DNA of 64,000 nt, taken from positions 83,410 through 147,409 of the forward strand of contig JBEKYM010000007.1 in the NCBI GenBank assembly GCA_049510975.1, in the 5' to 3' direction. Positions within the stretch are counted from its first letter, which is position 1. Each line of letters begins with the position of its first letter. Origin of the DNA: Acidimicrobiales bacterium (GTDB taxonomy: Bacteria; Actinomycetota; Acidimicrobiia; Acidimicrobiales; Bog-793). Below are positions 7,908 to 62,427 of the stretch, piece by piece. The notes below the pieces were generated by a model, which saw nothing but the letters and a program-made list of their open reading frames with translations, was not told where the DNA came from and searched no databases. Made by a program: the position numbers and the translations under genes.

Positions 7908-9365
7908 TCAGGACGTGGAGCGAGCAGGTGTCGGCGGCAGGATCACTCGGTCGGAGGCGTTCGTGCCGACCGTCGTCGCCGACCCGCCCGTGCTGCGGTT
8001 TGGCGCCCCAGAGGAGACCGAGCTGGCACCGCTCGAACCCGCGGAGCCGTTCGAGGCGCCGGAGCCGGTAGAGCCCACAGGCCCGGTCAGGGGCGGGGAG
8101 CCACCCGTCGTGCCCGTAGAGGATGTGCCGGTGGCCGTGACCGGCTCCACGAGGTAGCGGCAGGTCGCAACGGGGGCGGTGGCGAGCGAGCCGGCAGACG
8201 GGAGGGCCGCTCGCTGCAAGGTGGCACCTGAGGCGGACTTGGCCACGAGGGTGACCGCCCCCGCCTTGGCGAGGTCGACCGGCTTGGCGACCACGTCGGC
8301 CAGCACCGACCAGCCGAGCTTCGGCGCCATCGTCTCGGCTCCGCCGGTGGGGAACGTCGCCGAGACCGATGACACCGCTGAGCTCGTCCGGGAGATGGCG
8401 AGGATGATGGAGCGTCCCCCGCTCAAGGTCGTCGCCGCCGAGGCCACGACCGAGAAGGGCCGGCTGCCGGGACCGCCGGCGGGGACGAACAGCGTCTCGA
8501 GCGTCGATCCCTGCGAGATCGTCACCTCGAGCTCGGCCTCAGCAGGGCATGCTGCCAGGACGGGGATGGGTTTCACGCTCACGAACGGCGGCGAGGTCGC
8601 CGTCCCCGGCCGGGTCGAGCCGGTGGAGCTGCCAGAGCCGGTCGAACCTGGGGAACTACCGGAGCCGGAGCCGGCCGAACTTCGCGTGCCCGTGGTCGGG
8701 TAGGTGGTGCTCGGAGCCGGCGCCGGCGTCGGTGTGGCCACCGGGTAGGGCGAGGTCGTCGGGGGCGGAGCAACACGGGTCGTGAGGGGGAAGGCGAACG
8801 AGATGAGCGACGCCCGCAGCGTGATGCCGTCAAGGTGACTCGTGAACAGGAGCTTGGCGGTGTTCGGAAGGTAGACGGCGTCACATCCCGTCTTGCAGCC
8901 GTTCGGCGATTCCACGCCGACGCCGCCGCCGGTATCGGTGCTGGCGGCAGCGGGGATGGCGGCGGTGACCGAGTCGGCGGCGCCGGCGCCGGAGGGCGGG
9001 AGCGGGTTGTCCGACGACACAAAGCCGAATTCACCGGGCTCCGGGCCCCCGCTCGACGCCGTGGCCGGCTCGGCACCGGAGGCGGTGGGGGCTTCGGCGG
9101 CGCTGCCGGTGGCGACGCGGCCGAGGCTCGTGTCCCACTTCAGGCCGGCGGGCGCGGCCGCCGCCGTCGTGGTCGTGGCCTGGTTGAGGCCGACGCCGAT
9201 GCCGGCGCCGGCGAGGGCGACGACGATGGCGGAAGTGGCCACGACCCGGTAGCGGCGCATCTGCTGGCGCCGGCGCCGGACCAGGACCTGGCGGAGTACG
9301 TCTGGGGTGGCGGCTGGGGCGTCGCCGCCGTCGAGCACGTGGGAAAAGTCAAAGTCATCCATCAC
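7908..9365 (-). CDS. Single-pass membrane protein with Ser/Thr/Pro/Gly-rich ectodomain; possible anti-sigma factor
   Basis: 485 aa. A short N-terminal cytoplasmic segment ends in RRRRQQMRRYR, followed by a TM helix (VVATSAIVVALAGAGIGVGL) and a long low-complexity extracytoplasmic region. The gene is adjacent to the ECF sigma. I recognised no catalytic motif. Confidence 0.5.
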   Translation of the reverse strand: MMDDFDFSHVLDGGDAPAATPDVLRQVLVRRRRQQMRRYRVVATSAIVVALAGAGIGVGLNQATTTTAAAAPAGLKWDTSLGRVATGSAAEAPTASGAEPATASSGGPEPGEFGFVSSDNPLPPSGAGAADSVTAAIPAAASTDTGGGVGVESPNGCKTGCDAVYLPNTAKLLFTSHLDGITLRASLISFAFPLTTRVAPPPTTSPYPVATPTPAPAPSTTYPTTGTRSSAGSGSGSSPGSTGSGSSTGSTRPGTATSPPFVSVKPIPVLAACPAEAELEVTISQGSTLETLFVPAGGPGSRPFSVVASAATTLSGGRSIILAISRTSSAVSSVSATFPTGGAETMAPKLGWSVLADVVAKPVDLAKAGAVTLVAKSASGATLQRAALPSAGSLATAPVATCRYLVEPVTATGTSSTGTTGGSPPLTGPVGSTGSGASNGSAGSSGASSVSSGAPNRSTGGSATTVGTNASDRVILPPTPARSTS

Positions 9366-9576: not shown

Positions 9577-10365
9577 ATGCCCCTCGCACCCCTGCGCAGT
9601 CGGCCGGACGAGCACACCGAGCCCGGATTCGACCTCGGGCCGGTGCGCCGTGGCCGATCTCGCCGGCCGCGCCGGACCTCGAACCCGGAAAGCCGGCGTC
9701 CCCTCATGAGCGCGCTGGGTGTTCTCGTGGTTCTCGTTTGCGCCCTGCTCGGTGCTGAGGTCGCGGCCCACGCCAACCATCGATCGCGCGATCTCGCCGT
9801 CGCGACCTACGTGCCGCAGGGCGCTGCCATCACTGCCGCTGATCTCACGATCGTCAGCCTGACGGCAGGAAGCGGTGTCTCGGCAGTTCCCTCCAGCGAG
9901 AGCGAGTCCGTGCTCGGGCGCCGCGCCTCGGAACCGCTCGAGCCGGGCAGTCTCCTCGTTCCGGACGACTTGACGGCGGCCGCACCACTGCCCGCCGGCG
10001 ACGCCCTCGTCGGCACGAGCCTGGCGAACGACCAGGCGCCGGCGGGGTTGACACCCGGGGACTCCGTGCTCATCGTGCTGGGCGGGCAGGGCGCCGGCCT
10101 TCCCGGCTCGGCGAGCGGCGACGGTGAAGTCGCCTCGACACCGAGCTCGTCGACCACCGGTACCACGCCCGCGGCGGTATCGGGAACCCTTGCCGTCGGC
10201 ACCGTCTATGCGATCTCGCTGCCGACCTCTGGAAGTGCGGCAAGCTCGTCCGACAGCGAGATCGTGACGCTGGAGGTGCCGAGATCGGCAGCGGCGCTCG
10301 TCACCGCCGCCAGCGCAGTGAGCGACATCAGCCTGGCGCAGATCTCCGAAGGGCCCTCGTCGTGA
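9577..10365 (+). CDS. CpaB/RcpC-like Flp pilus assembly protein (SAF-domain type)
   Basis: It has a basic N-terminus, a TM helix (ALGVLVVLVCALLGAEV), then a YVPQGAAITAADLTIVSL... SAF-like segment and a Ser/Thr-rich linker. It is the first gene of the tad cluster and joins the next gene by a GTGA overlap. The start is uncertain. Confidence 0.65.
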   Translation: MPLAPLRSRPDEHTEPGFDLGPVRRGRSRRPRRTSNPESRRPLMSALGVLVVLVCALLGAEVAAHANHRSRDLAVATYVPQGAAITAADLTIVSLTAGSGVSAVPSSESESVLGRRASEPLEPGSLLVPDDLTAAAPLPAGDALVGTSLANDQAPAGLTPGDSVLIVLGGQGAGLPGSASGDGEVASTPSSSTTGTTPAAVSGTLAVGTVYAISLPTSGSAASSSDSEIVTLEVPRSAAALVTAASAVSDISLAQISEGPSS

Positions 10366-31261: not shown

Positions 31262-31447
31262 CCACGCGAGCCTCCTCCGCCTTCCGGCGGTCAGACGGGT
31301 AGGTCTCCTGGCTCTCGGATCGCTGCTCGCTCCCGCCTTCCCGCCCGGATGGGCCGTGGCTTGTTCGGAGTTCGCTCCCCGGTCACAGTTGCGGGACAGC
31401 CCCGGATTCTCACCGGGTTCCCTACGCCGCGAGGTCGAGGTTACCTG
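31262..31447 (-). promoter_or_regulatory. Cobalamin (B12) riboswitch in the cobU operon leader
   Basis: The minus strand reads ...GTAGGGAACCCGGTGAGAATCCGGGGCTGTCCCGCAACTGTGACC... (31424-31381). The B12-box-like GAGAGCCAGGAGACCTACC lies at about 31316-31298, followed by the hairpin CCGCC-GGAA-GGCGG and AGGAGG. The element ends about 20 nt before the cobU GTG. Confidence 0.85.
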
Positions 31448-31626
31448 TTGCCGCCGGTCGACCGGGAGGAGAGCTTCGGATCGATGCCGTGGCGGACCGA
31501 TGCGGGCCGGTTGAGCGGGCCGGCGGCGGCGTGGACCGCCGCTTGCGGGCCTGGGCGCGGGGGGACCGATCTTCCGACCGTCTACGATGCTGCCGTCCCG
31601 ACCGAGAGCGACCAGAAAGAGACATC

Positions 31627-32940: not shown

Positions 32941-33012
32941 GGCGGCGTGGCCGAGTGGTTTAGGCAAGGGCCTGCAAAGCCCTCTACCCCAGTTCGATTC
33001 TGGGCGCCGCCT
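32941..33012 (+). tRNA. tRNA-Cys (anticodon GCA)
   Basis: I folded the cloverleaf by hand. Acceptor stem GGCGGCG/CGCCGCC; anticodon stem AGGGC/GCCCT with loop CTGCAAA; T-arm CCCAG-TTCGATT-CTGGG; discriminator T (U73, the Cys identity element). No CCA is encoded. Confidence 0.95.
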
Positions 33013-33204
33013 CCCCAGTGGCACCTCCGGCCACCACGCCCGGAACAGGGTCGCACCTCCGCCAGTTCGCGCAAGAAACCGCTCCGGGTGGTTCCGCGAC
33101 GCCCTGCCTCGACATCGACGGCCCGCAGAATATCCGGTGGTGCCATCTGCGCCCAGACGGCGCTGACCTCTACGTTGCCGGCAACTGCTCCCGCCGCGGC
33201 GGAC

Positions 33205-52601: not shown

Positions 52602-53240
52602 ATGCGCAAGCACCCCCTGATCGCGCTGACCGCGTTCACTGCGCTCACCGCGAGCGCCGTTGCCGGTGCAAGTACCGGCAACTTTTCAGCCACTTCCGTA
52701 TTGGCGAGCGCTCGGACCAACCATCTGAGCCGCCCGTCTGCAGTGCACCTGTCAGAGCTTGACGTTTCCCTCAGCGCTGACTCGGCCTCGTCGACTCGCG
52801 GGTTCACTCGCGATCTCGTGGCCAGCCACGACCTCAACCGTCCGGCAGGGCTCCACCTGAGCTCCGTATCGGGCCAACCGGTCGCGACCAAGCCGAAGCC
52901 CAAGCCCAAGCCACACGTCGTCGAGGAAGCTCTGGCACCGGTCGCCCCGGCGCCGGCGCCAGTCGTGACGACCACCACAGCACCGCCGGTTGTCACGGCG
53001 CCTGCCGGTGGGGTCTGGTACGAGCTCCGCATGTGCGAGTCCGGCGGCAACTACGCCGAGAACACGGGCAATGGTTATTACGGCGCCTACCAGTTCGCAT
53101 TGTCGACCTGGTACGGCCTCGGGTTCACCGGCCTCCCAAGCGATGCCTCGCCGGCAACGCAGGACGCCGCCGCCGCCGAGCTGCAAGCAGAGGCAGGATG
53201 GGGACAATGGCCCTCCTGTTCGGCCCAGCTCGGCCTTTGA
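52602..53240 (+). CDS. Resuscitation-promoting factor (Rpf) domain protein
   Basis: 212 aa. It has a signal peptide, a (KP)n/Pro-Thr-rich linker and a C-terminal Rpf lysozyme-like domain (WYELRMCESGGNYAENTGNGYYGAYQFALSTW). GGAGGAG lies upstream of the ATG. Confidence 0.85.
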   Translation: MRKHPLIALTAFTALTASAVAGASTGNFSATSVLASARTNHLSRPSAVHLSELDVSLSADSASSTRGFTRDLVASHDLNRPAGLHLSSVSGQPVATKPKPKPKPHVVEEALAPVAPAPAPVVTTTTAPPVVTAPAGGVWYELRMCESGGNYAENTGNGYYGAYQFALSTWYGLGFTGLPSDASPATQDAAAAELQAEAGWGQWPSCSAQLGL

Positions 53241-53745: not shown

Positions 53746-54885
53746 TCAAGCCCCAGTCGGCTCGCCGACCGGCGAGCGACCGTGTTCGGGTCGTGGTCGA
53801 CGCATGGAGAAACGCTCCATCGGGATCGCCGGTGTCACACCTTGGGCGAGGTCGGCGAGGATCTCGCCCCAGAGCGGTCCGAATTTGAAACCGTGCCCGG
53901 ACGTGCCGGCTCCGACGACGAGGCGGCCCAGCCGCTCGATGACGAAGTCCTCGTCCGGCGTGTTGTCGTAGAAGCACCGCTCCGTCGCCAGCGGCCGAGG
54001 ATCGAGGGCCGGGATGAGGCGCTCGACCGCCGACACGAGGAGCGCGAGCGCGGCCGCGTCGACGTCCAGATCGACGCTGCCGGGGCGCACGGTGGCCCCC
54101 GGGTCGTGGACTCCCACCTTGTACTGTCCGCTCGCCGGCGTCGGCACGCCGTAGTAGGTGACCGGCCCGCGCTCGACGAACGCCGGCAGGCACGCCAGCC
54201 CGCGCGCCGGCGGCCCGAAGTAGGCGACTTGCTGCAGGCTCGGCCGGAACACCGTCGCCTGAGGCAGGCCTGTCAGGCTTGCAAGCTCTCCGGAGAAGGC
54301 TCCTGCGCAGAGCAGAGCGACCTCGCACTCGAGCACGCTTCCGGCGAGGTCGATCCGCACGCGATCATCGAGCTCCGTCAGCGATTCGGCACGTGTGCGC
54401 TGGCGGATCTCCGCACCGTCGGCGCGAGCCGAGTCGGCGAGAACGGCCAGGATCCTGTCGGCGCGGAGCACGCCGGCGGAAGCCTCGAACACGGCTCGGC
54501 CACCGATGGCGAATTCGGGGAACCGCTCGGCCAGAGCCTCCTCACCGAGGATCTCCGCCCTCGCACCGGCGCCATCCATGGCGGCTGCGAGCTCGTCCAC
54601 GCGCTCGCCGAACGACAGCAGCCCGAACGTCTCGAGGAGGGGCTCAGATGCCTCGTCGCCGAGCGAGTGCCAGCCGGCCAGGCTTCGCATCGCCATCTCC
54701 ACGTAGAGGGGGTCGTCGTAGCCGAAGCGGAAGATGCGCGAGGTCCCCTTCGAGCCCGATCGATCGTGGCCGATCGTCGCCTGCTCGACGCAGACGACAT
54801 CACCACCGCGGCGCGCCAGCTCGCGGGTGGCCGCCAGCCCGACGAGCCCCGCTCCGACGACGACGAACTCGTGCCGATCGGCCAT
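53746..54885 (-). CDS. FAD-dependent amine oxidase (DAO family; sarcosine/N-methyltryptophan-oxidase-like)
   Basis: 379 aa. The dinucleotide-binding N-terminus is FVVVGAGLVGLAATRELARRGGDVVCVEQ. The C-terminal segment is GTSGHGFKFGPLWGE. Confidence 0.8.
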   Translation of the reverse strand: MADRHEFVVVGAGLVGLAATRELARRGGDVVCVEQATIGHDRSGSKGTSRIFRFGYDDPLYVEMAMRSLAGWHSLGDEASEPLLETFGLLSFGERVDELAAAMDGAGARAEILGEEALAERFPEFAIGGRAVFEASAGVLRADRILAVLADSARADGAEIRQRTRAESLTELDDRVRIDLAGSVLECEVALLCAGAFSGELASLTGLPQATVFRPSLQQVAYFGPPARGLACLPAFVERGPVTYYGVPTPASGQYKVGVHDPGATVRPGSVDLDVDAAALALLVSAVERLIPALDPRPLATERCFYDNTPDEDFVIERLGRLVVGAGTSGHGFKFGPLWGEILADLAQGVTPAIPMERFSMRRPRPEHGRSPVGEPTGA

Positions 54886-55154
54886 TGCCGAGACACTAGG
54901 GGGTCGCTTCCTGCCGCGAATGCCCCAGCGCCCGAGCAGGGCTCCACGAGGGTTCCGGCAGCGGCGGCGGGGTGGACCGCCCTCTACACTGGCTTCATGG
55001 TGCGTTGCGTGAGGCGATTTTTCTGCCCCCCGGCCCTATTCGGGCCTGCCGGGGGGCGCACCGCCGACACCATCGGCTGAGCGCGCGGCCTTCTCGGCGG
55101 TCCCGGGGGCTGGGGGGTGCTCCCCCACCCATCCCATCCGAGAAGGAGCCTCAC

Positions 55155-56390
55155 GTGCCACCAACCATCTCCGCGAGCTCGCTCGCTCGCGACCTTGCCC
55201 TCCGAGACCTGACCGATCCCAGCGCCGGCGCTCACGCCATCCAGTTGCTCGTTGCCAACGCAGCCACTGCACTGTGCGCCCGCTGGCGCTGCGAAGCCCG
55301 CTGGAGACGCGGGCGGCGGGTCGTGACGGTGGAGGAGAACTACGACAGGCTGGGTTTCGGCGGTGAGGTCGTCACGCGAGACGCTCGCTACACCCGTTAC
55401 GTGGACGACATCCACATGTTGCGAAGCCACTCGTCGGCCATCGTGCCCGCCGCCCTCGAAGAGCTTGCCTCCGAGGAAGCCAACGGCTTGGCCCCTGACG
55501 ACGTCGTGCTCGTGTGCCCGGGCATCTGCTACCGCCGCGACTCGATCGACTGGCAGCACACCGGCACGCCCCACCAGATGGACCTGTGGAGGGTGTCGCG
55601 GCGGGAATCGCAACAGGCGCTGTGCGACGACGACCTCGACGAGATGATCGACACGCTCTGCCAGGCTCTGGTTCCGGGCCGGCCTTACCGACTCGAGCGC
55701 CGTGAGCACCCCTACACCCTCGCCGGCCGGCAGATCGACGTCGAGTGGGAGGGGACCTGGGTCGAGATCGGTGAGTGCGGCCTGGCCCATCCCGACCTCC
55801 TGCGACGGTGCGGGCTCGGTCGGCAATGGTCCGGCTTGGCGCTCGGCATGGGTCTCGACCGCCTCCTCATGCTCGTGAAGGGGGTCCCCGACATCCGCCT
55901 GCTCCGATCGCTCGACCCGAGAGTGAACGAGCAGATGGCCACCCTCGCCCCCTACCGCCCGACCTCAGGGATGCCGGCGGTTCGCAGGGACCTCTCGATC
56001 GCCGTGGACGCCGGCGAACAGGTGGAGGACCTCGGCGACCGGGTGCGCGAGTCGCTCGGCGAGGACGCCGAGATGGTCGAGGAGGTGCTGATCGTCTCCG
56101 CCACTCCGAGCGAGGAGCTTCCGCAGGCTGCTCGCCGGCGCCTCGGGATCGAAGCCGGCCAGGCCAACCTCCTCGTGCGCGTCACCCTGCGGTCCCTCGA
56201 CCGGACGCTCAGCGACGAGGAGGCGAACGCCTTGCGAGACCGGGTGTACGGCGCGCTGCACCGTGGCCATCGGCACCAATGGGCCAGCCGGGGCGGCTCG
56301 CCGTCATCGGGCGTGGGGCCGCCTGCTGCGGTCAGCCGGGCGCCCGGCAGCCCGCTGGCGCCGCCAGCACTCCGATCCCCGGCCCGGTGA
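55155..56390 (+). CDS. PheS-like class II aminoacyl-tRNA-synthetase-fold protein with C-terminal FDX-ACB domain (stand-alone, no pheT)
   Basis: Lies in ORF 54972..56390. GTG 55155 has GAAGGAG 6 nt upstream. Segments are VVTVEENYDRLGF, HMLRSHSS, the motif 2-like PGICYRRDSIDWQHTGTPHQMDLW and the motif 3-like GLALGMGLDRLLML. The C-terminal RRDLSIAVD...LLVRVTLRSLDRTLSDEEANALRDRV is FDX-ACB-like. Confidence 0.75.
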   Translation: MPPTISASSLARDLALRDLTDPSAGAHAIQLLVANAATALCARWRCEARWRRGRRVVTVEENYDRLGFGGEVVTRDARYTRYVDDIHMLRSHSSAIVPAALEELASEEANGLAPDDVVLVCPGICYRRDSIDWQHTGTPHQMDLWRVSRRESQQALCDDDLDEMIDTLCQALVPGRPYRLERREHPYTLAGRQIDVEWEGTWVEIGECGLAHPDLLRRCGLGRQWSGLALGMGLDRLLMLVKGVPDIRLLRSLDPRVNEQMATLAPYRPTSGMPAVRRDLSIAVDAGEQVEDLGDRVRESLGEDAEMVEEVLIVSATPSEELPQAARRRLGIEAGQANLLVRVTLRSLDRTLSDEEANALRDRVYGALHRGHRHQWASRGGSPSSGVGPPAAVSRAPGSPLAPPALRSPAR

Positions 56391-57567
56391 GCGCGATGTC
56401 GTCGGCTCCGGCCGCGACGACTTCGGTCACCGGGGACTTCGGCGTCGTCGACGCCAGCTCGGCGCCGGTGAGGGGGTCCAGGCAGACGAGCGCCGTCAGC
56501 TCGGACGCCCACACGATGCCGCCCGTGCCGTCAAGGGTGATCGACTCGAGCGTCGCCGCCAGTCCCGTCGGCGTTCCCGGCTCCCCTCCCGCCGGACTGA
56601 GGCCCGGAAGATCGAGGCGCCTCACCTCACTGGAGCCGCCGGTCCCGATTGCGGCAAACAGCCCGTCGGCACCGAAGGCCATCGACTCGACGGCGGCGCC
56701 CGCGTCCAGGTCGTCCACCGCCACAACCGCACCGGAAGCGTCGTCCAGCAGCTCGATCCGTCCTCCCGTGGCGGCTCCCGAGGAGCCTGGATCGAACAGG
56801 CTGACGGCCACATCGGGCGACGAGTCACTGACAGCCATGTGCTGAGCGATCGAGGATCCGAACGAGGCGAGCCGCCGCCACGAGAGCGAGCGGCCTTGCA
56901 CCGCCAACAGCGAGCTTCCCGTCGATGCGAGCACCTCTCCGCCGGTGCCCACGAGGAAGAGTCCGTAGCCTCGGCCGAGCGACCGCGAACCGAGCACGCG
57001 TAGCGTCGACGGATCCAAGCGATACAGGGTCAGCACGTAGGGCCCGGCGTCCGTCGGGCCGGCGAGATCGAGGCGGGCCGTCCCGACGTAGAGTGACCCG
57101 CCGGCGAGCGTCAGGCTGCTCGTGAGCAACGCCGCCCGCGCGAAACCCCCCGACACCGCCTCGACCCTCCCATTGACGGCGAGCTCGAGCACGCGGAGCT
57201 CGGTCTCTTGTGCGCCACACGCCTGCAACGCGTACAGCGACGAGCTCGAGGCCGTCACCGACGCGAATGTGCCCGCCACGAGCAGGTTGTAGGGCCACCC
57301 GCCGACCTGGCTCGAAGCGATGGCCGAAGGCGGCGCGTCAGGGGCCGTGCAGGTGGCGGCCGGGCTGTGAACGGCCGAGTGACGGTCGGAGCGGGCGAGG
57401 ATGGCGCCGATGCCCGTCCATCCCGTGACGACGACGAGCGCCACGACCACCACGAGGGTGACGATGGAACGGTGCCGATCGGCCGAGCGCACCACCGCGC
57501 GGAGCCGTCCTCGATCCCCGCCGCCGAGCGCCCGCGCCGCACGAGCGGCATGTGCCTGCTCGTCCAC
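56332..57567 (-). CDS. Membrane-anchored protein with repetitive beta-rich (propeller-like) ectodomain, function unknown
   Basis: 411 aa. An N-terminal TM helix (IVTLVVVVALVVVTGWTGIGAIL) is followed by repeated Gly/Ser/Leu/Ala-rich strands. I recognised no motif. Confidence 0.5.
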   Translation of the reverse strand: MDEQAHAARAARALGGGDRGRLRAVVRSADRHRSIVTLVVVVALVVVTGWTGIGAILARSDRHSAVHSPAATCTAPDAPPSAIASSQVGGWPYNLLVAGTFASVTASSSSLYALQACGAQETELRVLELAVNGRVEAVSGGFARAALLTSSLTLAGGSLYVGTARLDLAGPTDAGPYVLTLYRLDPSTLRVLGSRSLGRGYGLFLVGTGGEVLASTGSSLLAVQGRSLSWRRLASFGSSIAQHMAVSDSSPDVAVSLFDPGSSGAATGGRIELLDDASGAVVAVDDLDAGAAVESMAFGADGLFAAIGTGGSSEVRRLDLPGLSPAGGEPGTPTGLAATLESITLDGTGGIVWASELTALVCLDPLTGAELASTTPKSPVTEVVAAGADDIALTGPGIGVLAAPAGCRAPG

Positions 57568-57671: not shown

Positions 57672-58532
57672 TCAGGGACGTCGGGGAGGGCCTGCCGCCA
57701 TCCGGTCGAAGACCGCCGACACCGACTCGTCGGCGCGCACCGTCTCGAGCCACCAGGTGGCGCCGGCGTTCTCGAGCTGATGGAGGCGCTCGAGGTCCGC
57801 CTCGGCCCACCTCGGACCGAGGGAGCCCCGCAGCACGAGGTCGTGCTCAGGCGCAGCGCCGAGACGTCGGAGCTCGTCTTTGATGTCGCGCACGTCGGCC
57901 GTGCTCGGCAAGGCGTCCGAACCGCGTTGATCGGCGAAGACGGGCAGGATGCCGTCCAGGTGGGCCGCTCGGCGTAGCGGTGTCCGCCGCGGCCACTCGG
58001 CGCTCACCCAGACCGGAACCCGGGGCGTTTGCAACGGTGTCGGCAGGAACGGTGCCGAGTCGACCTGCATCCACTTGCCTTCATGACGAACGGGACGACC
58101 GGACCAGCACTGCAGGAGCACGGCCAGCGACTCGTCGAACAGCGAGGCGCGAGCATCCTCCTCCTCGTCGTGAGCAGCACGCCCGGCTGGCAGGGCGAGG
58201 TTCTCGTGCCAACTCGCGTAACCGAGGCCCGTCGCGAAGATGAGCCGGCCGTGCGTCAGGTGGTCGAGGACGGCCGACTGCCGCGCCAGCACCCATGGAC
58301 GACGTCGGTCGGCCACCGGGGTGACGAGGCCGAGGCGCAGTCGTTTCGTGATGGAGGAGATGGCGGCGAGCGCGATGCAGGCGTCGGCCACCGGCACGGC
58401 GTCGCCGTACTCGGCAAGGTCCGACACGAACAACCCGTCCCAGCCAGCTCGCTCCGCCTCCACGGCAATGTCGACCACCCGCGAAGCATCCGCGAACTCG
58501 CCAAAGAGCGGCAGAAACCCGCCGTACTTCAT
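57672..58532 (-). CDS. LLM-class (luciferase-like) flavin/F420-dependent oxidoreductase
   Basis: 286 aa. The protein reads MKYGGFLPLFGEFA...AERAGWDGLFVSD...RLRLGLVTPVADRRRPWVLARQ...GRLIFATGLGY. Confidence 0.8.
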   Translation of the reverse strand: MKYGGFLPLFGEFADASRVVDIAVEAERAGWDGLFVSDLAEYGDAVPVADACIALAAISSITKRLRLGLVTPVADRRRPWVLARQSAVLDHLTHGRLIFATGLGYASWHENLALPAGRAAHDEEEDARASLFDESLAVLLQCWSGRPVRHEGKWMQVDSAPFLPTPLQTPRVPVWVSAEWPRRTPLRRAAHLDGILPVFADQRGSDALPSTADVRDIKDELRRLGAAPEHDLVLRGSLGPRWAEADLERLHQLENAGATWWLETVRADESVSAVFDRMAAGPPRRP

Positions 58533-58613: not shown

Positions 58614-59465
58614 TCAGCGAATTGTCGGCGGTCCTGCCACCACTCGGTCGAAGATCGAGGATGGCGCTTCTTCGCGTCCGAAGCTCTCGAGCCACCAGGT
58701 GGCGCCGGCGTTCGAGAACACGCGCAAGCGCTCCAGTGCTTCGTCGGTCCACTTCGGACCGAGGGCGCCACGGAGCACGAGATCGTGCTGCGGCGGCGCC
58801 CCGAGGCGGCGGAGCTCGTCGCGGATCTTGCTCACCTCGGAGGGGTCCGGCGGCACGAGGTAGTCGCGCTCGTCCACGAAGATGGGCAGAACGCCATCGA
58901 CATGGGCGGCGCGGCGCAGCGGGTTCGCCCGCGGCCAGCGGGCGCTGACCCAGACAGGGATTCGCGGCTGCTGCACCGGCGTCGGCAGGAACGGCGCCGA
59001 GTCGACGTGCAACCACGAGCCGTCGTGACGGACCGGCTTGCCCGACCAGAACTGCAACAGGACCGCCATCGACTCGTCGAGGAGCGTCTGGCGTTGCCCC
59101 TCGTCCTGGGCGGCCTCGGAGAACGCCGTCAGCTCGCCGAGCCAGCCCTCGTCGCCGAGCCCGGTACCGAAGATCAGCCGTCCGCCGCTCAGGTGATCGA
59201 CTGAGGTCGTCTGGCGCGCCAGCACCCAAGGCCTGCGGCGCGTGAGGGGCGTGACGAGCGGGCCGAGCCGCAGCTTGGACGTGCTCGCGGCGACCGCAGC
59301 CAGGGCGACGAAGGCGTCGCCCACCGGGACGCCCTCGCCTCCGTAGACGTGGTCCCAGAGGAACAATCCGTCCCAGCCGGCATCTTCGGCCTGCCTGGCC
59401 ACATCGACAACGCGGGCTGGGTCGGCGAATTCACCGAAGAGCGGAAGGAAGAGACCGTGTTTCAT
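58614..59465 (-). CDS. LLM-class oxidoreductase, tandem paralog of 57672..58532
   Basis: 283 aa, colinear with its neighbour (MKHGLFLPLFGEFA...AEDAGWDGLFLWD...). The two genes share identical DNA runs such as CTCGAGCCACCAGGTGGCGCCGGCGTT. Confidence 0.8.
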   Translation of the reverse strand: MKHGLFLPLFGEFADPARVVDVARQAEDAGWDGLFLWDHVYGGEGVPVGDAFVALAAVAASTSKLRLGPLVTPLTRRRPWVLARQTTSVDHLSGGRLIFGTGLGDEGWLGELTAFSEAAQDEGQRQTLLDESMAVLLQFWSGKPVRHDGSWLHVDSAPFLPTPVQQPRIPVWVSARWPRANPLRRAAHVDGVLPIFVDERDYLVPPDPSEVSKIRDELRRLGAPPQHDLVLRGALGPKWTDEALERLRVFSNAGATWWLESFGREEAPSSIFDRVVAGPPTIR

Positions 59466-59535: not shown

Positions 59536-62427
59536 GTGCTACGAGCCCGCCTCACCCGAGCCGACCGGTGGGCGCTGCTCGTGCTGGTGGCATTGCCGGT
59601 GCTCGTGAACGTCCCGTTCGCCCTCGCCGGGCATCCGGTGCTCGACGGCGACAACCTCACGCAGAACTACCCGCTTCGAGTGTTGGCCGGCCAGCTCATC
59701 GCCCACGGCCGCTTGCCCTTGTGGGATCCGGGCATCTGGAGCGGCGTGCCACTGCTGGCCGGCTGGAACGCCGGCGCCATGTTCCCCGGCACCTGGCTGT
59801 TTGCCATCCTGCCCGGCGTGGCGGCCTATGAGCTCAACGTCGTGGCCGCCGGCGTGGCCTGCGGCGTCGGCTTTCACCTGTTCCTGCGGCGGTCCGGCTG
59901 CTCACCGCTGGCCTCCTTCCTCGGGGCGCTCACTTGGAGCGAGGCGGGTTTCGTGAGCGGTCAGGTCGTCCACCTCGGTCTCATCGAGGGCACTGCGCTC
60001 GCTCCGTGGATCCTCCTCGGGATCGACGGCCTGTTCCGGTGCGCCCGGGCGAGAACGCCCTCGGGCCACTGGATCTGCCTCCTCGGCGCCGCCGGCGGCC
60101 TCACCGTGCTCGCCGGCGACCCGAGAGCCGTCTCGAGCAATGCCATCATCGCCGTGCTCTATCTGGCCGCCCGCTGCTGGCGGGAGCGCCGTGCCGGTGT
60201 GCGCGTGCTGCGGGGTGTCGCCGTCGGGGCGGCCGTCGCCGTCGCCACGAGCGCCGTGCAGTGGCTCCCAGGCCTTGCCTACTTGCAGACGTCACAGCGG
60301 TCGGCGAGCACGCTGGCGCTGTTCGGCTTCTACTCGCTCGGCTGGAACGACCTTCCCTTGCTGTTCATGCCGTATCTGATCGGCGGCAACGGCAACTTCG
60401 GGATGCCGAGCTACGCCGGGCAGTTGAACCTGCCCGAGGTGACCTACGGCGTCGGCATCCTCCCGCTCATCGCCCTGTTCGCACTGCTGCCGAGGTTGCT
60501 GCGACGGGAGCGCCTCTACCGTTCGAGCAAAGCCGAACTGGCGGCGCCACCACCTGATGCCGCCGGCGACGGGCGCCGGCCGGGACTCGCTCTCTGGTAC
60601 GTCATGTTCGTCGTCGGCCTCGTCCTCGCGACGGGCACGAAGACCCCGCTCGGCCACGTCCTCGTGCACGTACCGCTCTACGGCGGCCAACGGGACCAGA
60701 ACCGCAACGCCGCCATCGCCGACTTCGCCCTTGCAGTCCTGCTCGCGGTGTTCGTCGACGCGCTCGCCGGCCAAGTGAGCCGCCGTCGGGCCGAAGCTCG
60801 CCCGGTTGGCCGCGGTTCGTGGCGCTTGGCCGGCGCCGTTCCCGTCATCGTCGTCGTCGGGCTCGTCGTGGCGATGTTCACCTGGACGGGGCCGATGGAG
60901 CGCTGGCTCGGCGTCGACCCCGTTCAGCCGAACCTGCCGTCCTCCATGGCGGCGTACTACGGCGTCGCCGTCGTGATCGCCATCGCCGGCCTCGTCGTGC
61001 TCCTCCGACGAAACTGGCGATCCGCCGACAGCCACCGCCGTGCCGCCGCCGGGGTCGTCCTCGCCGACGTCGCACTGTTCATCGCCATGGCGTCGTACCA
61101 GCCCGTCGCCCTCTCGGTGCTGGCGCCGTCCAATCCGGCGCTCACGGCCGTTCTCGCCCGCCTACCGGCCGGCAGCCGCATCGCCATCGACGATCCTGAC
61201 CAGCTTGCTCTCAGCTCGCCGTCACAACTGACGGACCGACTCGGCGTCAACGACCTCGTGCTCTTGCACGTGATCGACTCCGTGCAGGGTTACGGCTCCG
61301 CAGTCCCGGCCGCCTACGAGACGGCAACTGGCACTCACGATGTCGAGAACCTGCTCCCTGATGCCTTCCTCGGGTCCACCTACGACGACCTCGACCTCGG
61401 CGTCCTCGTCGTCGTGCCCGAACAGTTCGGCACCGTGCTCGCACCCCACGGCCCGGTCCCGGTCCCCACCGGACCGCCGCTCCCCCTCGGCCAGAGCGCC
61501 GCCGACCGCCAACCCAACGGGGTGGCCCGATTCCCGTACCCACCCGCCGGACCCTGGCGCCTCGGCGCCGGCGGGCTCAGCTGGCAGCTGCCCTCCCCGA
61601 CCGAGCTGCCCTCGCTCACCATTGGCTTCGAGCGGCGCTACGGCCCGCTCCCGACGGGGCAACTCGTCGTGTCGCTGCAGCTCGCCGACGGCCGGCGCCT
61701 CTCCGTACGCGGGTCCTGCGTCGCGGGCGAGCTCACACTCGCGCTCCCGGTGGAAGCCGAGCGTGCCGGCGGCGGCGTGCTCGCCGTCACGGTGAACGCC
61801 GCGGGGGCGGACCTGCGCGCCGGCGAGCCCGTCGTCGGTACCGTCGTGGTCACCGCGGATGTGGCCAGTGCTCCCCTCGCACTTCGACAGCCGTCCGACG
61901 GCACCGTCCGATATGCCCTCAACGGGCTCTTGCAGGGTCTGCTCACACCGCCCCACTGGGTCTATGCCGGCCGGGTCGGGCCCCTCGTTCTCTACCGCGA
62001 CACGCGGGCGCGGGGTCAGGCCTGGCTCGAGGCCTACGGTGCCACCGATCCGTCGGCGCCGAGCGTCGACGGAGCCGTGAGCGTCCCGGTGGTAGCCCGC
62101 TGGCAGGACCCGGTCACGATCGTCGAGGTTCCCGCACCGAGCGAGCTCGTGCGCAGCGAGCAGTACTCCGCCGGGTGGACGGCCACCCTGCAGCCCATCA
62201 CCGCCGCGGGCGCCGACGCCGGGGGCGTCACCCTCACCCGGGATGTTCAGGCAGTGGGCCTCCTCCAGGGCGTGGCGGTCCCGGCCGGCCGCTACCGCGT
62301 CACGTGGCACTATCGCTCGGCGCGAGCAGAGATCGGTCTCGCACTGGCGGCTGCTGGAACGATCGCCTGCGCCTGCCTCGCCGCCGCCGGCCTTGTCTCG
62401 CGACGCCGGCGACTGGCCTCCCGTTAG
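59536..62427 (+). CDS. Large polytopic membrane protein, YfhO-like (putative glycosyltransferase-C fold)
   Basis: 963 aa. The N-terminus reads DGDNLTQNYPLRVLAGQLIAHGRLPLWDPGIWSGVPLLA, followed by more than 10 TM segments and a soluble C-terminal region of about 400 aa ending in a final TM segment. Confidence 0.6.
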   Translation: MLRARLTRADRWALLVLVALPVLVNVPFALAGHPVLDGDNLTQNYPLRVLAGQLIAHGRLPLWDPGIWSGVPLLAGWNAGAMFPGTWLFAILPGVAAYELNVVAAGVACGVGFHLFLRRSGCSPLASFLGALTWSEAGFVSGQVVHLGLIEGTALAPWILLGIDGLFRCARARTPSGHWICLLGAAGGLTVLAGDPRAVSSNAIIAVLYLAARCWRERRAGVRVLRGVAVGAAVAVATSAVQWLPGLAYLQTSQRSASTLALFGFYSLGWNDLPLLFMPYLIGGNGNFGMPSYAGQLNLPEVTYGVGILPLIALFALLPRLLRRERLYRSSKAELAAPPPDAAGDGRRPGLALWYVMFVVGLVLATGTKTPLGHVLVHVPLYGGQRDQNRNAAIADFALAVLLAVFVDALAGQVSRRRAEARPVGRGSWRLAGAVPVIVVVGLVVAMFTWTGPMERWLGVDPVQPNLPSSMAAYYGVAVVIAIAGLVVLLRRNWRSADSHRRAAAGVVLADVALFIAMASYQPVALSVLAPSNPALTAVLARLPAGSRIAIDDPDQLALSSPSQLTDRLGVNDLVLLHVIDSVQGYGSAVPAAYETATGTHDVENLLPDAFLGSTYDDLDLGVLVVVPEQFGTVLAPHGPVPVPTGPPLPLGQSAADRQPNGVARFPYPPAGPWRLGAGGLSWQLPSPTELPSLTIGFERRYGPLPTGQLVVSLQLADGRRLSVRGSCVAGELTLALPVEAERAGGGVLAVTVNAAGADLRAGEPVVGTVVVTADVASAPLALRQPSDGTVRYALNGLLQGLLTPPHWVYAGRVGPLVLYRDTRARGQAWLEAYGATDPSAPSVDGAVSVPVVARWQDPVTIVEVPAPSELVRSEQYSAGWTATLQPITAAGADAGGVTLTRDVQAVGLLQGVAVPAGRYRVTWHYRSARAEIGLALAAAGTIACACLAAAGLVSRRRRLASR

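Follow-up and report, generated by a model that had tools for sequence, protein, structure and literature searches.

Two described forms of phenylalanyl-tRNA synthetase (PheRS) frame the protein considered here. The mitochondrial enzyme (FARS2, PheRS-M; PDB 3CMQ/3TUP) is a single chain that joins a PheS core to a PheT-B8-type FDX-ACB domain and has neither a coiled coil nor an editing module, and bacterial PheRS is formed by PheS and PheT. The mitochondrial form has been described as the only known monomeric class II PheRS (PMC3275996, a review), and the AARS Online catalogue lists no carriers of the PheT-type anticodon domain other than bacterial PheT and the mitochondrial enzyme (PMC11580382). 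PylRS and SepRS, class IIc relatives of PheRS, set the precedent for PheRS-like cores re-specified to other amino acids. With regard to regulation, an attenuator controls the auxiliary, antibiotic-resistant TrpRS1 (trpRS1) of Streptomyces coelicolor. Leader-peptide attenuators of the kind found at E. coli pheM-pheST, where the sequence record annotates the leader peptide pheM upstream of pheST, consist of a short upstream open reading frame (uORF) with one or more cognate codons, followed by mutually exclusive helices. We analysed a 64,000-nucleotide (nt) stretch of DNA (the window) from an Acidimicrobiales bacterium (assembly GCA_049510975.1, contig JBEKYM010000007.1, positions 83,410 to 147,409 of the forward strand), in which the gene srmL (55155-56390, + strand; stop codon 56388-56390) encodes a 411-residue PheRS-like protein with a single phenylalanine (F68) that belongs to the NCBIfam family NF051887.

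The reading that we favour, and hold with modest confidence, is that SrmL would be an auxiliary PheRS, made as one chain and lacking an editing function, that a shortage of Phe-tRNAPhe induces through ribosome stalling and that can be translated without phenylalanine. It is favoured because two independent signatures, a Phe-free enzyme and a sensor uORF with a rare Phe codon, point to a shortage of Phe-tRNAPhe, and also because the catalytic core is conserved, the anticodon domain is of the tRNA-binding type, and the gene travels with aminoacyl-tRNA synthetase (aaRS) genes and tRNA-Phe in phage-like contigs. In this model we infer what induces the switch, which way it works, and which amino acid and which tRNA are used.

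SrmL as a single-chain relative of PheRS

The window protein scored 504.1 bits against NF051887 ("PheS-related mystery ligase SrmL"; cutoff 300) over positions 1-349 of the 349-position profile. Its PheS-type class II core (55311-55934, + strand) matched PF01409 (tRNA-synt_2d; 6.9e-29, 101.5 bits with a gathering score of 19.8) and contains motif 2 (YRRD...PHQMDLW) and motif 3 (GLALGMGLDR). An FDX-ACB domain of the PheT-B8 type (55965-56261, + strand) matched PF03147 at 35.7 bits (gathering score 31.1), corresponding to residues 332-430 in the 472-residue open reading frame (ORF). Both matches exceed their gathering scores, which bears out the fusion of a PheS core to an FDX-ACB domain proposed in the initial annotation; the missing N-terminal coiled coil was also correctly described, as the protein begins at the catalytic module. 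Scores against the equivalogs for bacterial PheS (TIGR00468, 84.2 bits with a cutoff of 237.45) and mitochondrial PheRS (TIGR00469, 118.6 bits with a cutoff of 258.35) failed. The core also gave weak matches to the PylS_Cterm and sepS models, far below their cutoffs; different from PylRS and SepRS, SrmL keeps the PheT-type anticodon domain and a PheRS-like pocket floor.

An AlphaFold 2 model of SrmL has a mean predicted local distance difference test score (pLDDT) of 79, with values above 90 in the core and below 50 for residues 371-411. The closest PDB structures to this model are of full-length human mitochondrial PheRS (5mgv/3cmq, E ~3e-23, ~400 aligned columns), in agreement with the monomeric mitochondrial layout first noted for this ORF, while bacterial PheS chains match over the core only. 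A special kinship with mitochondrial PheRS was considered and found no support in domain-wise model scores: the core scores alike against bacterial and mitochondrial models, and for the anticodon-binding (ACB) domain the bacterial PheT C-terminus is the better-scoring model. The core is 28.7% identical to E. coli PheS and matches M. tuberculosis PheS at E 1e-17. The N-terminal segment taken earlier as organellar-like proved to be generic, its 'NYDxL' corresponding to the NFDaL motif of PheS. The mitochondrial-like size was right for the ORF, at 411 residues, but the conserved family length in the family alignment is ~350-375 residues, and residues 378-411 form a non-conserved, low-confidence tail. 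Of the initial interpretation, the architecture, the orphan status and the substituted motifs have held.

SrmL thus shares with mitochondrial PheRS its single chain and domain content. It differs in having FHQxEG and FPFT replaced and TIGR00469 failed, in an ACB domain that carries a ~15-residue insert and lies closer to bacterial PheT, and in belonging to a bacterial, plasmid- and phage-borne family that is nearly Phe-free and sits behind a leader-ORF control region. With bacterial PheS it shares a homologous core in which the motif-2 and motif-3 arginines, the LR(T/S)(Q/H)(T/S)S motif and the equivalents of T251 and A294 are kept. It differs from PheS and PheT in having no coiled coil, PheT partner or editing site, in being accessory and not universal, and in having every hallmark Phe replaced. 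Longer family members carried no informative domain fusions, and a literature search turned up no publication that deals with SrmL, with a PheS-like paralogue or with a monomeric PheRS from bacteria. SrmL is a real single-chain PheRS relative in a family that NCBI has named without assigning it a function.

Conservation was examined in 196 SrmL sequences, comprising 120 close homologues and 76 divergent representatives, whose identity to the window protein is 28-52%, and active-site positions were mapped through alignments. The motif-2 Arg127 and the motif-3 Arg236 are 100% conserved, Lys242 is also invariant, and D143, W145, Y187 and H140 are conserved at 92-94%. Compared with the PheS proteins of E. 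coli, Tsukamurella and M. tuberculosis, FHQxEG has become PHQxD(L/I)W across the family (PHQMDLW in the window), NFD has become NYD, HPAR xxTR, DTFW YTRY, GCG ECG, FPFTEPS HPYTxxG, and GFAFGMGxER GLALGMGLDR. The substitutions of FHQxEG by PHQMDL and of GxGxER by GMGLDR that were first noticed in the window protein are therefore real and family-wide; the HPxR region had been read as TRDARY, and HPAR in fact aligns with VVTR. The pocket floor, T188 and A229, corresponds to E. coli T251 and A294. In eukaryotic cytosolic PheRS a Tyr is invariant at the Phe260 position and an Asn replaces Phe258 (PMC3275996), so the changes of SrmL at these two positions are compatible with recognition of Phe. Changes that are signatures of SrmL are E to D143, L to W145, F to H185, G to E207 and Y to K242, together with an extra Arg81 near the active site. 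As judged from these alignments, the core of SrmL is that of a catalytically intact PheRS homologue, and we predict that it is active.

The composition of the family is unusual in one amino acid. Phenylalanine is absent from 120 of the 196 members, each of ~370 residues, and occurs exactly once in another 25. It makes up 0.12% of residues in the 120 close homologues and 0 of ~4,700 residues in 13 low-GC members, compared with 5.2% in 122 canonical PheS sequences and with 2.8% and 5.3% in the proteins neighbouring srmL at high-GC and low-GC loci, respectively. Phe is the sole outlier, with ratios of 0.09 and 0.00, all other amino acids lying between 0.4 and 1.7; among 694 background proteins of at least 300 residues, just 1.6% have one Phe or none. 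Lineages without Phe are found at high as well as at low GC. Seven of the motif changes in SrmL remove a hallmark Phe of PheS, which fits selection for a Phe-free protein rather than loss of function. Depletion of the cognate residue is known for enzymes that are needed during starvation for an amino acid, biosynthetic enzymes among them (PMC4209129).

The leader region of srmL

The gene starts at a GTG at 55155, to which the N-termini of homologues (M..LS..QLARDL.RDLTDP) align, with the Shine-Dalgarno (SD) sequence GAAGGAG at 55142-55148 (+ strand; AAGGAG core at 55143-55148, 6 nt 5' of the GTG). The ~170 nt 5' of srmL are more conserved than the protein when the window is compared with two related loci (L001, L002). 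Within them lies a leader ORF (54997-55080, + strand) of 27 codons plus a stop, which encodes MVRCVRRFFCPPALFGPAGGRTADTIG. A −10-like hexamer, TACACT (54985-54990, + strand), is read 6 nt 5' of the ATG of this uORF, and a TANNNT box occurs 6-7 nt before the GTG or ATG of the uORF in nearly all of the 90 leaders collected. Because the −10 box is only 6 nt from the uORF start, the leader transcript would be leaderless, beginning at the uORF, which is probably translated. Across leaders the uORF has 22-35 codons and a conserved stop 57-157 nt before srmL.

The candidate control codons are CGA-UUU-UUC (Arg-Phe-Phe; 55015-55023, + strand), of which CGA-UUU is an invariant rare dicodon. With uORF starts located without regard to frame, the start was in frame with CGATTT in 86/86 leaders despite a spacing of 12-30 nt (P ~1e-41, ignoring relatedness). 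The Arg codon was CGA in 86/86 leaders, compared with 4.6% of Arg codons in srmL coding sequences, and the Phe codon was TTT in 83/86, compared with 10% of Phe codons there; CGATT is invariant in the leader alignment. Exactly one Phe is present in 82/90 leader peptides, which share the motif (R)RF(x)xP. Upstream of 114 of 159 srmL genes (72%) we found an RFxxP uORF, as opposed to 3.4% of 1763 control upstream regions, and for uORFs with CGA-TT[TC] the figures were 103/159 and 0.3% of the 1763 controls. A leader profile built by iterated nhmmer gave 88 matches in 2.28 Mb searched on both strands, all directly 5' of srmL and on its strand, and these cover essentially all actinobacterial loci and a Glutamicibacter plasmid. 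Rfam models, including T-box and riboswitch families, gave no match at gathering score upstream of srmL in the window and only noise at E <=10 in the leaders.

With ribosome-mediated attenuators the leader shares a conserved short upstream ORF whose cognate control codon is in frame across homologues. It differs from the classical attenuators in several respects. There is a single invariant control position, the rare dicodon CGA-UUU, and not a run of cognate codons; the transcript is apparently leaderless; and the RFxxP motif, conserved in the leader peptide, could additionally make it an arrest peptide. A U-tract is lacking from most actinobacterial copies, so control may be translational. 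The srmL gene of an Azotobacter plasmid has an RF-type uORF (CGA-TTT) beginning MNNRSHRFSRPW, followed by a canonical hairpin and U-tract terminator; in this proteobacterial copy (L090, A. chroococcum plasmid NZ_CP066311.1) the uORF and the intrinsic terminator are found ~200 nt 5' of locus position 8944, and the terminator reads GCCCCTGG-loop-CCAGGGGC-TTTTCTTTT. The module may use transcription attenuation in the Azotobacter plasmid copy and SD sequestration in Actinomycetota. Two phage-like contigs (L081 and L082) encode a uORF containing FTRFKPIR, again with CGA-TTT. In the window, a consensus scan also reported a terminator-like hairpin with a T-run at 54992-55025, overlapping the uORF start and the Phe codons.

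The window leader folds with a minimum free energy (MFE) of -95.4 kcal/mol (z = -3.55). Right after the Phe codons a stable, GC-rich hairpin within the uORF (55025-55057, + strand) is present in both the MFE and the centroid fold of the window, and a hairpin after the Phe codon was found in the individual MFE folds of 14/14 leaders folded. A C-box, CCCCCGG (55027-55033, + strand), forms the 5' strand of a covarying long-range helix (RNAalifold columns 61-67 with 160-166) whose 3' strand is a G-box, CTGGGGG (55110-55116, + strand; coordinates from the window row of the leader alignment). The G-box thereby competes with the local hairpin for the C-box. In the long-range helix 96.4% of cells are paired and 6/7 pairs have changes on both sides; 0/500 shuffles reached the observed value, and slid controls were far lower. 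In the centroid fold of the window, GCGUGAGGC of the uORF pairs with GCCUCACGU, a stretch that runs into the srmL GUG. The srmL SD of the window is predicted to pair at rest with the first uORF codons. Over 50 leaders the SD is predicted to be mostly paired, with a median unpaired probability of 0.22, and in equilibrium folding a ribosome-sized mask at the Arg-Phe codons opened it from 0.20 to 0.78 in locus L005 and from 0.01 to 0.55 in L001. We propose that the leader is a ribosome-dependent switch that would act on transcription or on translation, and that the region 54985-55154 may represent a new family of cis-regulatory RNAs and leader peptides.

In the mechanism that we suggest, srmL and its leader would form a self-contained 'translation-rescue' module. 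The leaderless mRNA would begin at the 27-codon uORF, and when Phe-tRNAPhe is scarce, through limitation for Phe or inhibition of the housekeeping PheST, the ribosome would stall at the slow dicodon CGA-UUU. By sitting on part of the uORF, the stalled ribosome would keep that part from its usual pairing, either with G-rich segments further downstream or with the ribosome-binding region of srmL; the leader would then refold, allowing srmL to be expressed. Being essentially Phe-free, SrmL could still be translated in the shortage. With its motif-2 and motif-3 arginines it would activate Phe, or a very close aromatic analogue, and transfer the amino acid to a tRNA bound at its C-terminal FDX-ACB domain, so that charging is restored.

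Distribution, role and rival explanations

More than 120 homologues match SrmL at E <1e-140, in Streptomyces, Kitasatospora, Amycolatopsis, Nocardia and Acidimicrobiia metagenome-assembled genomes (MAGs). A pattern scan of 185,579 species-representative genomes yielded 329 stretches confirmed to encode a relative, the best match to the window protein being 73% identical and from an uncultured Actinomycetota MAG, and 365 clusters at 50% identity match SrmL at E <=1e-30. Identity among actinobacterial members is 59-85%. A Kitasatospora copy lies ~0.5 Mb from one end of a 9.36-Mb chromosome record. Bona fide SrmL proteins (370-524 bits) are also encoded on plasmids and in a huge phage. One srmL is on a 308-kb Azotobacter chroococcum plasmid amid insertion sequence elements and toxin-antitoxin genes, another lies between cmx and tet(33) on the Glutamicibacter nicotianae plasmid pGnB68 (L089), and on the Corynebacterium diphtheriae plasmid FRC0402_p2 (L092) a truncated copy is flanked by erm(X) and tet(65). 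In L089 and L092, where srmL lies within multiresistance regions, it could be a passenger or part of the resistance repertoire. It is present as well in the 634-kb 'uncultured phage' LR745206.1; pattern scans of IMG/VR viral contigs for SrmL, made with two queries, found nothing.

In phage-like, AT-rich contigs (29% GC) srmL is found inside islands of aaRS and tRNA genes. One of these contigs (L081) has 17 tRNA genes, AsnRS (432 bits with a cutoff of 414) and an ArgRS-like gene, followed by srmL, and also encodes a 1048-residue protein with a tail-fibre-like domain. A second (L095) has three tRNA-Lys genes, SerRS (440 bits), srmL 4 nt further on, then tRNA-Ser and tRNA-Arg. A third (L099) has LeuRS, IleRS (712 bits), tRNAs including two tRNA-Phe(GAA), SerRS and srmL, again followed by tRNA-Ser and tRNA-Arg. 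The synthetases of these islands appear to serve amino acids with AT-rich codons, Phe among them. We note that several calls in the 17-tRNA array of L081 (82-4335) are long (84-88 nt; Asn, Ile, Cys and Val), which may indicate introns or mis-assignment by ARAGORN. We also note that srmL of L099 (10001-11105), which overlaps the end of serS by 11 nt, is frameshifted near 10287, with the frame changing after residue ~96; an assembly error, decay into a pseudogene or programmed frameshifting could each account for this.

No tRNA gene is consistently present near actinobacterial srmL loci. ORF calling and blastp clustering of 81 and then 173 loci gave no conserved neighbour beyond genus-level synteny, in keeping with the initial remark that the neighbours do not explain the role of the gene. 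A gene able to function by itself once moved across phyla or into phages has to rely on universal substrates, which for srmL favours ATP, a standard amino acid and a tRNA.

Several observations weigh against a plain auxiliary PheRS, and the anticodon domain, as aligned, is the main argument among them. In bacterial and mitochondrial PheRS, three residues read G34 of tRNAPhe, namely an Asp, an aromatic residue (Phe or Tyr) that stacks on it and, at the C-terminus, an Arg (mitochondrial Asp364, Phe366 and Arg414; bacterial Asp729, Tyr731 and Arg780), and D364G abolishes the activity of human mitochondrial PheRS (PMC7540514, PMC8136816). Aligned with the B8 domains of E. coli and Tsukamurella, SrmL has no counterpart of the LFDV(Y/F) motif or of the terminal Arg. 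A Ser is replaced by Asn338, SrmL retains the 'RD' Asp that contacts the riboses of A36 and A37, and a family-specific insert of ~15 residues, T.(Y)..LP..A..RLG...QKN, is strongly conserved; the conserved surface comprises T317, L322, P323, R329, L330, G331 and N338. In the core, the adenine-stacking F216 is replaced by Pro and the α-amino ligand E220 by Asp across the family, and the equivalog scores fall far below the PheS and mitochondrial PheRS cutoffs. About half of the divergent representatives (P0129, P0135, P0148, P0154, P0185 and others) have a normal Phe content, with 4-23 Phe and NFD in place of NYD. They still keep D143, W145, H185, Y187, E207, K242 and Arg81, and Phe avoidance is therefore not the explanation of the whole signature. 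Over the 50 leaders the ribosome mask clearly opened the SD in only some, and its mean effect was small. Under pure Phe starvation a second PheRS would be useful only with a higher affinity for Phe, and the presence of a canonical pheST in the source genome is supported at the genus level and by the plasmid copies only. Because the G34-reading triad is missing and the amino-group and adenine contacts are altered, the main rival is a re-specified ligase, a class IIc synthetase that is active but has ceased to make Phe-tRNAPhe, serving another amino acid or another tRNA or RNA acceptor, and that would still be regulated by the availability of Phe-tRNAPhe; loading of Tyr or another near-cognate amino acid onto tRNAPhe in a Phe famine would be an example. 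We give this a distinctly minor share of the probability. The different, strongly conserved surface in place of the triad, the signature residues that persist in Phe-containing members, and the name 'mystery ligase' chosen by the NCBI curators themselves all speak for it, as does the stable production of Tyr-tRNAPhe by the editing-less mitochondrial PheRS (PMC3275996). The pocket, with its Thr/Ala floor and aromatic Tyr wall, is nevertheless that of genuine PheRSs, the Phe-free composition and Phe control codon indicate Phe-tRNAPhe as the deficit, SrmL takes the PheRS slot beside tRNA-Phe genes in the phage-like islands, and systematic mischarging would be costly.

The accessory and regulated nature of srmL and its unusual anticodon surface would also suit a non-charging sensor that binds Phe, ATP or uncharged tRNA and signals Phe status, and several aaRS paralogues are regulators, such as HisZ. 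We regard this as improbable, since pseudo-enzymes normally lose the residues that SrmL conserves, including the invariant motif-2 and motif-3 arginines as well as the His and acidic residues at the ATP site, and since srmL has no partner gene and, in phage-like contigs, lies together with genuine aaRS genes. That SrmL is simply the housekeeping PheRS of the source organism is very unlikely. The 64-kb window indeed contains no pheS or pheT, and the source genome lies outside the species representatives searched; however, the pattern scan confirmed relatives in only 329 stretches of the 185,579 genomes, canonical PheS is present throughout genera such as Nocardia, copies reside on Azotobacter and Glutamicibacter plasmids and in a huge phage, and the protein has no editing domain and a stall-type leader. 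A decaying, non-functional paralogue, which the substituted motif residues and failed PheS cutoffs might suggest, is effectively refuted by the pattern of conservation: the substitutions are themselves invariant across hundreds of lineages, the catalytic arginines are conserved, actinobacterial members retain the identity given above, the regulatory leader is conserved, and the modelled core is of high confidence. The suggestion made at the outset that this could be a second, monomeric PheRS has gained strong indirect support from the Phe depletion, the leader Phe codon, the plasmid and phage copies and the aaRS/tRNA islands.

As to what would trigger an auxiliary PheRS of this kind, the plasmid and resistance-island copies hint at inhibitors or toxins. 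A more far-reaching and tentative possibility, which we think doubtful on present evidence, is that the srmL cassette, with its hungry-codon leader and a Phe-free single-chain synthetase remodelled at both the active and the anticodon site, spreads horizontally and confers resistance, or counters defences, when natural agents (for example hypothetical PheRS-targeting antibiotics, toxins or phage-defence systems) knock out the canonical PheRS or Phe-tRNAPhe; in a variant of this idea, SrmL would deliberately load a near-cognate amino acid on tRNAPhe in a Phe famine. If so, the distribution of srmL would mark organisms exposed to or producing such agents, and SrmL would be a fourth structural form of PheRS, outside organelles. 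As a kind, SrmL is a variation on PheRS and on attenuator-controlled auxiliary aaRSs and is not categorically new, and the family itself is already catalogued by NCBI; what this analysis adds is a composition nearly free of Phe, a leader ORF with the RFxxP motif, and the occurrence in phage and plasmid settings. The minimal mitochondrial-type architecture is widespread in bacteria and is also present on plasmids and in a huge phage. Given that mitochondrial PheRS has been called the only monomeric class II PheRS (PMC3275996), and given the catalogued range of the PheT-type domain (PMC11580382), specialists should be surprised by the leader, by an enzyme designed without Phe, and by its presence in bacteria and phage. 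Phe avoidance and the leader Phe codon turn a 'mystery ligase' into a testable rescue-synthetase hypothesis. Were it true, SrmL would be a clean natural case of cognate-amino-acid-free enzyme design, a compact single-gene PheRS for synthetic biology and a candidate for a mobile gene of resistance to PheRS inhibitors, a class now being developed as antibacterials, and its leader would be a new cis-regulatory RNA and leader-peptide family absent from Rfam.

Surroundings of srmL in the window

Searches of the 64-kb window by tblastn with the PheS and PheT of E. coli and Tsukamurella matched only the srmL ORF, in line with the first observation that no pheT lies next to it, and defence-system models (PADLOC) gave no match. 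The immediate neighbours are as originally described, according to the ORF table and Pfam. On the 5' side is a divergent DAO-family oxidase (53746-54885), and on the 3' side a convergent ORF (56332-57567, − strand) that has no Pfam match and overlaps srmL by 59 nt; both are common only to the two closest MAGs. The C-terminal tail of SrmL (56286-56387, + strand; residues 378-411) is non-conserved in the family alignment and disordered, and its final 56 nt (56332-56387) fall inside the overlap, the other 3 nt of which are the srmL stop codon.

The wider context appears chromosomal, with genes for a GlnD-like protein, an L,D-transpeptidase, an aldose epimerase, SurE and an Rpf-type transglycosylase. 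The last of these, a secreted Rpf-like protein with a transglycosylase-like domain (52602-53240, + strand; PF06737, 3.5e-19), was overlooked by a gene caller based on third-position GC content because the local GC is lower. A cobalamin riboswitch (RF00174, 94 bits) is found at 31295-31448 (− strand) and a tRNA-Cys(GCA) gene at 32941-33014 (+ strand). In several Kitasatospora loci srmL is followed at 4-8 kb by tRNA-Cys genes, a pattern suggestive of genus-level synteny and not of a functional link. Beyond the convergent ORF lie tandem paralogous genes for luciferase-like monooxygenases (57672-58532 and 58614-59465, both − strand; PF00296), followed at 59536-62427 by a gene for a 963-residue multi-pass membrane protein with no Pfam match.

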